NCBI GenBank assembly: GCA_043764955.1 | Contig: JAYUJX010000355.1 | Span: 1 to 25,281 of the forward strand | From: Polaromonas sp. | GTDB taxonomy: Bacteria; Pseudomonadota; Gammaproteobacteria; Burkholderiales; Burkholderiaceae_C | Direction of reading: 5' to 3' | DNA: 25,281 nt | Shown here: positions 2,502-24,600 of the stretch, one piece after another | How the letters are laid out: each line of letters opens with the position of its first letter | Numbering within the stretch: the first letter of the stretch is position 1 | Notes under the pieces: model-generated | Seen by the model: the letters and a program-made list of their open reading frames with translations, nothing else | Told to the model about the DNA's origin: nothing | Databases searched by the model: none | Made by a program: the position numbers and the translations under genes

Positions 2502-2552
2502 GCGTTTAGGGGTGCATTAGGGAGAATACTTAAAAAATAAATTTAAAACAAT

Positions 2553-2581
2553 TTGCAATCGGTACAAATTACCTATACAAT
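2553..2581 (+). promoter_or_regulatory. Sigma70-type promoter for the 2644-3271 two-gene unit, with overlapping inverted repeat
   Basis: TTGCAA (2553-2558), 17 bp, TACAAT (2576-2581), with an AT-rich upstream tract. Inverted repeat AATTTG-N9-CAAATT (2550-2570) covers the -35. Confidence 0.85.
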
Positions 2582-2589
2582 CACGTCAT

Positions 2590-2636
2590 GGTAGCAAAAT
2601 CGCTACCTACCGCGCCTCGGGGTACAGGGGCAGGAG
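2590..2636 (+). promoter_or_regulatory. Structured 5' leader: two hairpins then SD
   Basis: GGTAGC-AAAATC-GCTACC (2590-2607), GCCTCGG-GGTA-CAGGGGC (2614-2631, one mismatch and one G-U), then AGGAG (2632-2636). Confidence 0.65.
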
Positions 2637-2643
2637 ATGTAAA

Positions 2644-3051
2644 ATGACTACAGCTACAAGATCGATTGCCGTATCTTTTATCAAAGACGGCCACAGCACC
2701 GCACCGCGTCTACTCGTAAAGCGCAATGACCAGCAAGCGGGCATGCTTACACACAATGAGTCTGGCTGGGTTTTTAACTTGGCGGGTGCACCGCAAGCCA
2801 ATGGGAGTGCCAAATTTCATGGGTGTTTGATTAATATTTTTGCTTATTCAAAAAGCGATATTAAGGTATGGGCTCAATTGGAAAAGGCGTGTTTTATAAA
2901 GCTAAACGATGCGTTGCAAGCACTGATACAAGCGGAGCCACGCGCTGCAAAACGCGATACGCAAAGCGAAGCGAATTATCTGCTGCAACGCTTCCCAGCA
3001 GCGGTTTCTGAAGGCTTAGTCAAAGTCCGCAAATCAGCTAGCTTGATTTGA
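2644..3051 (+). CDS. Hypothetical protein (135 aa), candidate anti-defence/moron gene
   Basis: Strong promoter and AGGAG SD. No motif recognised. Its stop is 1 nt before the HTH gene start. Confidence 0.8.
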   Translation: MTTATRSIAVSFIKDGHSTAPRLLVKRNDQQAGMLTHNESGWVFNLAGAPQANGSAKFHGCLINIFAYSKSDIKVWAQLEKACFIKLNDALQALIQAEPRAAKRDTQSEANYLLQRFPAAVSEGLVKVRKSASLI

Positions 3052-3052
3052 T

Positions 3053-3271
3053 ATGGACAACCACCCAAATCGCAAGCCCAAGGGGGCTTTCCCGACCGCC
3101 GAAGAAATCAAAGCACTCAGAGCCGCGCACAACCTGACGCAGAGACAAGCTGGTGCGCTGGTGCATTGCCAAGATCGCATGTGGCGGCTCTACGAAGCTG
3201 GCGACCGCAGAATGCCGCCAGCAGCGTGGGAGCTTTTTAATATCAAGATTAGGTTGGGGAATTTTGACTAA
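3053..3271 (+). CDS. Small XRE/Cro-C1 HTH regulator, Aca-like
   Basis: PTAEEIKALRAAHNLTQRQAGALVHCQDRMWRLYEAGDRRMPPAAWELF is a stand-alone HTH with no peptidase domain. Confidence 0.88.
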   Translation: MDNHPNRKPKGAFPTAEEIKALRAAHNLTQRQAGALVHCQDRMWRLYEAGDRRMPPAAWELFNIKIRLGNFD

Positions 3272-9390: not shown

Positions 9391-9519
9391 TTATGCAGCG
9401 CTGCATTGAGCCAAAATACCAGCAAGAAAACATGCAAGCCAGAAGCCAATAAGAAATAGCGCCAGCTTTGAGTAATGCTTCATGGCAAGGCGAACAGGGT
9501 GGTTAAGACGGCTTTTCAT
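9391..9519 (-). CDS. 42-aa single-pass membrane peptide (absent from ORF track)
   Basis: Manual translation: MKSRLNHPVRLAMKHYSKLALFLIGFWLACFLAGILAQCSAA-stop. Starts at an ATGA overlap (9516-9519) and fills the gap to the SD of the next gene. Confidence 0.68.
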   Translation of the reverse strand: MKSRLNHPVRLAMKHYSKLALFLIGFWLACFLAGILAQCSAA

Positions 9520-10176: not shown

Positions 10177-10243
10177 TACTTAATACACAATTTTTGCAAA
10201 AAAACAATAAATATTTTTATTTTTGAAAAATACTAGAAAGCTA

Positions 10244-15065: not shown

Positions 15066-15239
15066 ATGAGTAAATTTAATTTGTTTATTGAAGCTTTGCA
15101 AAAATTATGTATAGAGCACAAAGTTGTAGTTAGCACCTTAGGGTACGATTGCCTGCAGGTGTGGGATTTGGAATGCGAAGGTGATCTGTTAAGACAAATA
15201 GATAGCATCGAAGATCAAACTTCAAACAATTTGGGTTAA
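15066..15239 (+). CDS. 57-aa acidic hypothetical protein (absent from ORF track)
   Basis: AAAAGGGG SD, ATG 15066, MSKFNLFIEALQKLCIEHKVVVSTLGYDCLQVWDLECEGDLLRQIDSIEDQTSNNLG, TAA at 15237-15239. AT-rich. Confidence 0.7.
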   Translation: MSKFNLFIEALQKLCIEHKVVVSTLGYDCLQVWDLECEGDLLRQIDSIEDQTSNNLG

Positions 15240-21699: not shown

Positions 21700-24600
21700 A
21701 TGCCTACGTTAACAATCACAAACGACACACCGTGGTCAAAGATTTATTCAACCAGTTCGACGGCATTCACAATTGGAATTGGTGGAACCGCGGTGCTTAC
21801 CGTTCCCGCAGGTCAATCTTATGTGGCGGGTCAAAACCTCGGGCTTTATCCACAAGGCACACCGCTCTTGACACCGCTTGCTTGTAACGTCGCATCCTAC
21901 ACAGGAACAGTCCTGACGCTCAATGTGACCGCTTTTGGTGTGCTGGCTGGCGGCACGGTTGGTGCGGTCAACACCATGACCGACCGCTTTGCCAAGCAGG
22001 CGCTCTCAGTCACTTCAAACACAGTTGGCATAGCCTTAAAAACTTGGGCAATCCGTCCAGGTCTAAACCTCACAGCGGGCGACGGCATTACTACTGGCGA
22101 CGAAATCAACATCGTGTCCCGTGTCTCGCAGGCTAACCGCATGTCAGGCCGAGTTACTGCGTACAACAATACGACAGGAAGCGTCTCGATCAACGTCATG
22201 GCATCCGCTGGTGCTGGTACGTTTACGGACTGGATCTTCACATCAGGTGGCACAGTGTCGTCGTGGATCATCGACGTGCTCGACGGTGACTTGGTAGATG
22301 TGACTGGATTCGCCACACTGACCTTTGACGTTTCCCCGCACGGTTGCCCAAACAGCTACCGGGCAATCGCCCAAGGCAAAATCAAGCACGTCAACACGCC
22401 GGAAGCTGACCCGATTGTCGTTCGCCTAGCTGGCAAAGGCACGGTCGACGTTCGTAGTAACGCCGTTCACGAAGCCAAGTCCGCAACCTACAAAACTGTA
22501 GGCACAGGCACGGGCGCGGCGCTGACTGTTACGCTTCCAGCGGCCTGGGATAAATTGGCTTACCCGACCGCTGTTGAGGTCGAAACCGCAGCAGGCAGCA
22601 ACGTGTATGAGCAGTGGCAGGTCTACCCGTCCTATATCTACGGTGTGCAGCGCTACGGCTATCACTACGGCTGTGATTTGCTTGATGTATTTCAAGGAAA
22701 TCTTGGCGGTACAAACACAGGTGCGGTTGCTAACACTGCCTATGCAGTAACAGGCGGTTCAGGCACGGGTGGCGAGTTCTTTGTGCAGTCTGTCAGTGGC
22801 GGCAACATCACCGCAGGCTATCCGACCAAGGGCGTTGGCTACGCAGTCGGCAACGTGCTCACAATCCAAGTCGGCGACAACCTGAAGACCTTCACTGTCA
22901 CGGTACTTGGTACATTCGGCGGCTCAGGGCCACTGAACAAGGTGGCGATCTGGAACCCCGCTGTACGATCTTTAAACTTTGGCGACAACACAAACGGCGT
23001 TGCTGTGCCAGCTGGCGCAAAGGTGCGCATTGCCAATTGTGCGCTTGAGGGCTTGCCACAAGAAGCGCCGATCATTGCAGACCTGACAACTGCCAGCACG
23101 ACAGCAACGTTTGAAAGCGGCGCGGCAATCACGATTTTTGACAACTCGCAAATGTTCATCGACAGTGAAGCCATCATGTCATCGGGCAAGGCCGGCAACC
23201 TGTTTACGCTGGCGCGAGGAGGCTCAAACGGGCGAGGCTCGATGGTCAAGGCGCACACAGCGGGGGCAGTTGCGCGAAATCACGCGCTAAACAGCGTCAC
23301 AAACAAGTGCCAAGTGCTCACCGATCCGGGTGGCACGCTCGACTATGACGGCTTTATCCTTGGCGAAAACATCACGATTCAGTCAGCAAACGCAAAAGGC
23401 ATCACGCTCGATCGTACTGGCTCGACTGGGCAATTGCTGATTCGCAACACTCCAGCAGCCGTTACTTTTGAGCAACACAGCCAAGCAGGTAATCCGTACT
23501 CGGACTGCATTGCTGGTGGGCCAATGGTGTACTTGAACACCGTACAGGGAATCATCAATGCAAACAACGTGACCATAGGTCAGGCGACTTGGAACACCAA
23601 CATCGGGCAGGGTAATATCTTATTTAGTCCGGTGAACTGTCCGCAAATTCAGAGCATGGCTAACTTCCGTGTTGCCGTGGTAAAACTGCGGCGTTACGAT
23701 GTCAATGTGGTGACTGTCAACGGCTGCCTCTTCCTTTCAGACGGTGCGCTGCATGACTTTGACGTGACCGTGCGTAGTTTATTTCAGACGCTGTCCGGCA
23801 CGCGCTTCTACAACATTCGCCATTGTGCGCACGTCGCCAAATTTTTACTTACTGATAACTCGCAAGCAGAGCGCGGCTTGTTCTGCCTCAATGTTTCTGA
23901 CACCTTGTTTCACGGGCTTGGCTCTGTAGTCGGCTGTCAGCCCACGTACATGAACCCGCTTACCTTGGACGGCGGCAGCAACTCAAATCTAGTGCATTCG
24001 TGCACGTATGAGGGTTCGTGGTTAGGTACGCCATCACTGTTTCACTTGTTTGACAATCGCGGTGTTAATAACTCGTTTGTAAATATTTCATCGACGGCAA
24101 TCCGTGATGCCACGTACTACAACTACTCAAACGGCGGTTCACAATTCGGCACTACGGAACGCCGCAACAACATCCGTTTAGGAACCGCGTTTATCGGCGG
24201 CAGTCAGTGGCCATCGTCTGAAAGTCAAGACGATTTTGTAGTTGGTAGCTCGGTATCGGCGACAGTGCCAAACTTACAAGACGCAGCCTGGTGGCACAAC
24301 CTTATTGACGGCGGAACGATCACACCAAACACGGGCCGCGTCTTCTTGGGTTACGGTGGGCCAAACGTCAATAAATCAAACTACACGATTACAGGTAGCG
24401 TTCGCACGTTTGTTAACAACTCCGGCTCTATGTTCCTTGGCGACACGGGCGACACCGTGACGTTCTCAAATTGGTATCCATTGCGCGGAATCACCAGCTT
24501 CCAGAATTCAGCAATCACGACAGCGCACAACAACTGGACGGGCGTGACTGAGCAAATTCGGTTCTGCCCGTGGGGCCAAGATATCACCGCCGTCGGCTTT

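Follow-up and report, generated by a model that had tools for sequence, protein, structure and literature searches.

The window studied here, a whole contig of 25,281 bp (C355; JAYUJX010000355.1) from a fragmented Polaromonas sp. metagenome-assembled genome (MAG; 2.79 Mb in 723 contigs), is of phage origin and carries a small cassette (2510-3271) that resembles the operons in which anti-CRISPR (Acr) genes precede a gene for an anti-CRISPR-associated (Aca) repressor. The cassette encodes a 135-amino acid (aa) protein of an orphan family (2644-3051, + strand), referred to here as the cargo, and a 72-aa helix-turn-helix (HTH) protein (3053-3271, + strand) that by sequence comparison belongs to the Aca10 family of repressors. 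That the cassette is regulated in the manner of an acr-aca10 operon is well supported, and it is probable, by association, that the cargo is an anti-defence protein. If a single target is to be named, the best guess is type II-C Cas9, since the type II-C system of the MAG holds spacers against the phage; this guess is tentative, and we give it somewhat less than an even chance. Carrying these readings are the family of the HTH, a 5' leader homologous to the leaders of aca10 operons, cargo that is hypervariable across the family, the linkage of this particular cargo family to two Aca families, and the targeting of the phage by CRISPR. The system is of a known kind, to which the cargo family and the operator variant add new members.

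The first line of evidence is the regulator. A sequence-only reading of this DNA had described a stand-alone 72-aa HTH coupled to the cargo, and the open reading frame (ORF) indeed starts one base past the cargo stop codon. The protein matches Pfam HTH_31 at 2.9e-6. When it was compared with Aca families, as that reading had suggested, the answer was Aca10: the best match among all PDB sequences is 7XI5 (E 4.8e-12; 29 of 57 residues identical over query residues 12-68), the Aca10 protein of Pseudomonas citronellolis, which is a dimeric repressor of the acrIC7-acrIC6-aca10 operon (PMC9410881; PMC7913775). HigA2 antitoxins in the same set reach E values of only 0.24-0.3, some eleven orders of magnitude short of the Aca10 match. 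In Aca10, R44 is critical for DNA binding in electrophoretic mobility shift assays, and Q22 and R34 are also DNA-binding residues (PMC9410881). These residues align with R52, Q30, and R42 of the window HTH, and E52 of Aca10 is conserved as well, while G49 at the Aca10 dimer interface corresponds to A57. The recognition helix is altered, with R45 and L46 (WRLY) in place of Q37 and Q38 of Aca10 (WQQW), and all of the listed relatives that have a canonical operator carry WQQW. The altered recognition helix fits the altered operator described below.

A scan of one genome per species recovered 80 loci with relatives of the HTH at 41-60% identity, mostly in Betaproteobacteria and including the reference locus L064. 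The HTH and these genome loci have an N-terminal MxNHPNR motif and the EAGDRRM/WELF motifs in common, and the N-terminal extension MDNHPNRKPKG is shared only with a betaproteobacterial subgroup. The closest relatives also carry the MxNHPNR extension at their N-terminus, which confirms 3053 as the start codon. A word-index search of protein databases with the HTH returned no candidate because gene callers skipped its ORF in the near-identical contigs L001-L003.

The second line of evidence comes from the region upstream of the cargo. A sigma-70-type promoter on the + strand (2553-2581) consists of TTGCAA (2553-2558), a 17-nt spacer, and TACAAT (2576-2581), and is preceded by an AT-rich stretch (2526-2549). 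The sequence-only reading had called this promoter near-consensus; the promoter is there, but the wording was somewhat generous as 9 of the 12 consensus positions agree. The context of the -35 element (ATTTGCAA), the spacer length, and the distance to the TCATGG that begins the leader are as in aca10 operons. The leader itself (2586-2643, + strand) is of the aca10-operon type and proceeds from TCATGG through a first hairpin (GGTAGC-N6-GCTACC; 2590-2595/2602-2607), the conserved box ACCGCGCCTCGGGG, and a second hairpin (GCCUC/GGGGC; 2614-2618/2627-2631) to the Shine-Dalgarno sequence AGGAG (2632-2636), with a folding energy of -20 kcal/mol. A two-hairpin leader had been remarked on separately in the sequence-only reading, in agreement with the structure found here.

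From the -10 element onward the window resembles its aca10 relatives: TCATGG comes first, a hairpin whose sequence varies follows, and the box ACCGCGCCTCGGG, another hairpin, and a Shine-Dalgarno sequence come after it; the two-hairpin layout is common to the relatives and the sequences of hairpin 1 differ. The window has a single copy of the motif GCGCCTCG-N4-12-AGGGGC, where chance would give none, and the motif recurs in 11 independent aca10 loci, always upstream and on the same strand. From these similarities the promoter and leader, apart from the operator, are judged to be homologous to those of aca10 operons. A layout of DNA motif, transcription start site, and RNA motif has been predicted for aca10 operons, and the window fits it; the same study reports that binding of Aca10 to the RNA is yet to be demonstrated (PMC13551039). 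In a separate observation, a Rhodocyclaceae locus (L014) contains two copies of the aca10 leader motif (1590-1608 and 2235-2254), which suggests two operons under one Aca10.

The third line of evidence is the company that aca10 genes keep. The 80 genome loci, a Ralstonia phage locus (L007), and the window were sorted by the position of a canonical-type operator. The operator lies directly before the HTH gene in 39 of them (solo type), cargo lies between promoter and HTH in 23, among which the window is counted despite its non-canonical operator, and in the remaining 20 the 1.7 kb upstream of the HTH contains no operator of the canonical type. The 23 cargo-first loci, one of which is L064 with the validated acrIC7-acrIC6-aca10 operon, hold 31 cargo ORFs that fall into 29 sequence clusters. 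The HTH homologues therefore sit behind variable small genes, known acr genes among them, and have varied partners rather than one fixed partner, both of which had been put forward in the sequence-only reading as signs of an acr-aca system. An hmmsearch with the cargo profile found no relatives of the 135-aa protein among these 31 ORFs, and of 57 ORFs that lie immediately upstream, none matches a Pfam toxin family. Taken together with the Aca10-family regulator and the aca10-type leader, the hypervariability of the cargo bears out the acr-aca architecture that had been proposed for the cassette. The layout of acr-aca operons is also found here: the cassette is phage-borne, has its own promoter, and places a small cargo gene upstream of the aca gene on the same strand with tight spacing.

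Two other groups of aca10 loci were seen in the course of this sorting. Ralstonia phages of the genus Rahariannevirus have the same module, in which a canonical operator precedes three small genes and a partly unannotated aca10 gene. In the cultured phages Hyacinthe, Raharianne, and Albius (L007, 1-1235; L008), a near-canonical operator (ATACGCTCATTGCGCGTAT) lies between TTGACA and TATTAT, the aca10 gene is unannotated in two records, and the three upstream small genes, which have no annotated function, are acr candidates. In Thiobacillus and relatives (L038-L061), a large group of 88-aa Aca10-like genes lies just 93 nt behind a canonical operator, with no cargo before them (solo or aca-first type), and in some of these loci the same conserved gene ends about 870 nt upstream.

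The operator is where the cassette departs from its relatives. The canonical Aca10 operator is a palindrome of 19-21 bp, ATACGCTCAWTGAGCGTAT, which is the site bound in vitro by Aca10 (PMC9410881) and which lies between the -35 and -10 elements in most of the 80 genome loci; it is absent from the window. Three inverted repeats are candidate operators in its stead. Repeat A (AATTTG-N9-CAAATT; 2550-2570) spans 21 bp over the -35 element, repeat B (GGTA-N5-TACC; 2561-2573) occupies the canonical Aca10 operator slot, and repeat C (TACC-N16-GGTA; 2570-2593) covers the -10 element and the transcript start. Repeats A and B had been picked out by the sequence-only reading and are both present; repeat C and the leader hairpin GGTAGC-N6-GCTACC (2590-2607) were not listed in it. 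Each of the first two occurs once in the window, against 0.16 (A) and 0.06 (B) occurrences expected by chance. Repeat A is invariant in L001-L003 and is the only one of the three candidates unchanged in relatives. In L001-L003, which are about 97% identical to the window across this region, and in metagenome runs X5 and X6, repeat B is disrupted by a change of TACC to TGCC. In a related haplotype both arms of repeat C are altered together (TGCC...GGCA), a paired change at 2571 and 2592 that counts as one event. Taken alone, 6-bp inverted repeats in 2500-2643 are not unusually frequent (2 observed, shuffle mean 0.67; P ~0.16), and therefore the case rests on the comparative evidence. We infer that the HTH represses its own operon promoter somewhere within 2550-2593.

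An intriguing question is what the cargo might be. The sequence-only reading had left the 135-aa ORF unrecognised, and it has no match in Pfam, PHROGs, NCBIfam, or PADLOC. As had also been said of it, the protein is not acidic; it is basic (isoelectric point 9.7), with a grand average of hydropathy (GRAVY) of -0.13 and no signal peptide or membrane segment. The cargo profile gave only chance matches to designed proteins among PDB sequences. An AlphaFold model of moderate quality (predicted local distance difference test, pLDDT, 73) was searched against the PDB with Foldseek, with VIA-align wide, and against BFVD, AFDB clusters, and the ESM Atlas, and found no convincing fold match, the best Z being 4.3. 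An ESM Atlas feature search, with scores of at most 0.83, yielded no lead. A GNAT-like fold appeared in low-scoring rows in three libraries and was rejected, as the predicted topology, in which helices come after a beta-meander, is at odds with GNAT. Against toxins, the four family resources and the fold searches produced no match of any kind, which would still accommodate a new toxin.

Only four distinct relatives of the cargo were found, P0001 (96% identical), P0002 (63%), P0003 (31%), and P0004 (31%); two came from 5.8 billion protein clusters and three from 1.84 billion representatives, with one in both. Scans of viral, genome, and metagenome contigs and a tblastn search of phage records added no further homologues. 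The relatives share F-x-x-DGH, R-x-x-Q-x-AG, and several Trp and Gly positions, and the DGH is invariant. The surroundings of these relatives are informative. P0003 (locus L005) lies behind an 81-aa gene and overlaps at an ATGA with a downstream gene for a 70-aa HTH, which matches Pfam Aca2_YdiL (PF08965) above the cut-off and the Aca2 structures in the PDB at E 5e-8; the insertion point of this operon is between the Mu-type genes for portal and terminase, and it runs on the strand opposite to theirs. P0004 (locus L006) is directly followed by a terminator, with no HTH. P0002 sits among consecutive small genes of the same strand, close to an end of a contig of about 63 kb, and an uncalled gap of 270 nt lies behind it. 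One cargo in combination with different Aca families is a pattern reported for genuine acr genes (PMC9410906; PMC7913775). The cargo family thus occurs with two unrelated Aca families and, in one case, without any, which is incompatible with a fixed toxin-antitoxin pair.

The last line of evidence is that the bin contains a CRISPR-Cas system directed at this phage. Contig C670 (locus L090, 1-3042) encodes the C-terminus of Cas9 (RuvC_III), cas1, cas2, and an array with a 36-nt repeat and eight 30-nt spacers, and contig C165 (locus L094) encodes the N-terminal 640 aa of an Nme-like type II-C Cas9; the locus was split by the assembly. Five of the eight spacers match the window, where shuffled spacers reach a maximum of 21/30. 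One match is perfect (30/30; 15082-15111, + strand) and a second reaches 28/30 (177-206, + strand). Protospacer-like sites are matched at 25/30 by a third (23232-23261, + strand) and a fourth spacer (24253-24282, - strand), and at 22/30, just over the null maximum, by a fifth (9483-9512, - strand). The 3' flanks read N4GC in three of the five matched sites, so N4GC may be the protospacer adjacent motif. The five matching spacers derive from this phage lineage, which the Cas9 system of the MAG has therefore targeted repeatedly, and the presence of a perfect spacer and the phage together in one bin is a situation in which an anti-CRISPR is expected. A complex prediction for the cargo with the N-terminal 640 aa of the host Cas9 scored 0.01, which weighs neither way. 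As a side observation, the perfect protospacer has a 24/30 look-alike at 10184-10213, in the divergent early promoter region, and both sites contain TTTGCAAAAATT(A/G)TGTA, which suggests that these sites are a repeated regulatory element of the phage.

The cassette is an accessory one, at a variable site of the phage genome. Other genes in the window encode a holin, an M15 endolysin, an Rz-type spanin, a lipoprotein, a ParB-like protein, a VapE-type primase-helicase, the large terminase subunit (TerL), a portal, and an HK97-type capsid. The cassette lies directly behind the lysis genes and is convergent with the leftward early genes. Its left border is the intrinsic terminator of the lysis/late operon (2471-2506, + strand), and the 11-bp stem and T-run at 2471-2496 uphold the earlier description of the unit as insulated by a terminator. 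Contigs from other metagenome runs of the same study part from the window sequence at 2504-2509, just past this terminator, and related genomes in runs X3, X4, and X6 (same or similar samples) show at least three different continuations at the site, which is a hotspot for accessory-gene exchange. One low-depth contig seems to connect 2654 to 3059, and here the cargo may have been swapped. In comparison with L001-L003, divergence is greatest in the cassette, at about 97.8% identity with flanks at 99-100%, and the cargo differs by six nonsynonymous and three synonymous changes clustered in residues 54-89. At such small counts these differences are no more than suggestive. The cassette is, on the combined observations, a discrete variable module. 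Residues 54-89 are also the least confidently modelled loop region of the cargo, and the differences there are from the 96%-identical homologue. Elsewhere in the MAG, contigs C10, C70, C245, and C550 carry microsatellite-like repeats (CACACA, GAGT, and GAAGAA runs) that are unusual for bacteria, and these contigs may be contamination of the bin.

A mechanism can be proposed for how the cassette may operate. On infection, the fairly strong constitutive promoter (2553-2581) would drive early transcription of the cargo gene and the coupled aca10-family gene. As the HTH dimer accumulates, it would bind inverted repeats that overlap the promoter and shut the operon down, and a further layer of control may act on the RNA through the conserved two-hairpin leader, which ends at the Shine-Dalgarno sequence. 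The cargo would most likely act as an anti-defence factor, with inhibition of the host type II-C CRISPR-Cas9 as the best single guess. It is possible to go further and to suggest that the cargo founds a new family of type II-C Cas9 inhibitors, the first found under Aca10 control, which may act on the guide RNA or enzymatically, and that the regulator is an Aca10 variant with a switched operator specificity (WQQW to WRLY) that has kept the leader RNA; we regard this fuller proposal as speculative and would sooner bet against it than for it.

Several points weigh against an acr-aca10 cassette aimed at Cas9. With four distinct relatives, the association statistics for the cargo are thin. In Pfam, PHROGs, NCBIfam, PADLOC, and PDB sequences, and in fold searches with a model of moderate quality, the cargo showed no similarity to a known Acr or anti-defence protein, and its basic character is unlike that of DNA-mimic Acrs. 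Its activity is deduced by association, with no homology, fold match, or interaction prediction that ties it to a defence system. Since the canonical operator is absent, autoregulation at this promoter would depend on repeats none of which is strong by itself. Aca-like regulators are not always tied to acr genes (PMC9410906), as the 39 sorted loci with an operator directly before the HTH illustrate, and Aca-regulated operons also hold other cargo (PMC13551039). Moreover, the MAG is a population bin, in which the phage and the spacer that matches it may come from different cells.

One alternative possibility is that the cassette is an Aca10-controlled early cassette whose cargo acts on a target other than CRISPR, such as restriction-modification (RM), abortive infection, or host takeover. 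Aca-regulated operons have been reported with many unannotated genes and with non-Acr anti-defence candidates (PMC13551039), the basic cargo with its invariant DGH motif is like no known Acr, and P0002 occurs in its run of small same-strand genes near a contig end. Nevertheless, the type II-C array is the only defence system shown here to target the phage, and every functionally validated Aca10 partner cited is an Acr (PMC9410881; PMC9410906; PMC7913775). We therefore consider a non-CRISPR target rather unlikely.

It is less probable still that the cargo is a moron that helps the lysogen or carrier cell, through superinfection exclusion, defence, or fitness, and merely uses an Aca10-type autoregulated promoter. 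A location behind the lysis cassette, insulated by a terminator and with its own promoter, is typical of morons, the site is variable between related genomes, and Aca-controlled operons with RM genes have been described (PMC13551039). These features have to be set against a circuit of the Aca type, in which a burst of expression is followed by repression and which suits a function early in infection, and against a cargo that lacks a signal peptide or membrane segment; moreover, no integrase or CI-type repressor was noted on the contig in the sequence-only reading, and lysogeny is not established. A toxin-first type II toxin-antitoxin pair of the HigBA or MqsRA kind, in which the 135-aa protein would be the toxin and the HTH both antitoxin and autorepressor, is very improbable, for although the gene order and one-base coupling resemble HigBA, the HTH weakly matches HigA2 and the C-terminal domain of MqsA, and Aca10 itself structurally resembles HigA2 (PMC9410906), no RelE/HigB-like fold was found in the moderate-quality cargo model and the two genes are not inherited as a fixed pair, given that P0004 stands alone before its terminator, P0003 is paired with an Aca2-type HTH, and the partners of the HTH are hypervariable.

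An acr-aca10-type cassette with an anti-defence cargo would be of interest for several reasons. Operons of the acr-aca kind are the main route to new anti-CRISPR and other anti-defence proteins, and new inhibitors of type II-C Cas9 would serve to switch off compact Cas9 editors. The cargo is a candidate with three independent lines of association, namely the Aca10-type regulator, the Aca2-type regulator of its homologue, and the host Cas9 array against the phage, and its protein family is essentially undescribed, given that the large collections searched hold so few relatives. The locus would also be a natural specificity variant of Aca10, with recognition helix and operator changed and the leader RNA retained, and such a variant could help to show the role of the conserved aca10 leader, which was left open by earlier work (PMC13551039).

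Among known systems, HigBA2 and MqsRA share with the cassette the order of first gene and then HTH, the tight coupling, and an autoregulated promoter that bears palindromes, and the fold class of their HTH is related. They differ in that the partner gene of the window system is not conserved, that it has no toxin family or fold, and that a cargo homologue occurs without an HTH. AcrIIC1-5 are likewise small proteins of phages or other mobile genetic elements that lie next to an aca gene, in hosts with Nme-like Cas9 such as the one in the MAG, but no sequence or fold similarity to the cargo was detected, and the literature found holds no link between Aca10 and an AcrIIC. The acr operons under Aca2 (phage ZF40 type; PF08965; PDB 7VJO and 8W35) are closer, in that the cargo homologue P0003 stands before an Aca2-type HTH in a Mu-like head module. 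The window regulator is of the Aca10 type instead, and the L005 regulator, of only 70 aa, lacks the C-terminal half of Aca2. Dual control through DNA and leader RNA is established for Aca2 (PMC13551039) and could apply to the window. The closest counterpart is acrIC7-acrIC6-aca10 of P. citronellolis. Like the window system, it has a small stand-alone HTH as the last gene (51% identity over 57 residues, with R44, R34, Q22, and E52 kept), a TTGCAA -35 element in ATTTGCAA context, promoter-spanning inverted repeats, one or more small cargo genes in front, and a two-hairpin leader beginning with CATGG. The window system differs from it in an unrelated cargo (nil by hmmsearch), in the absence of ATACGCTCAWTGAGCGTAT, in RMWRLY instead of R[TA]WQQW in the recognition helix, in the MDNHPNRKPKG extension of its HTH, and in a likely target that is type II-C rather than type I-C.

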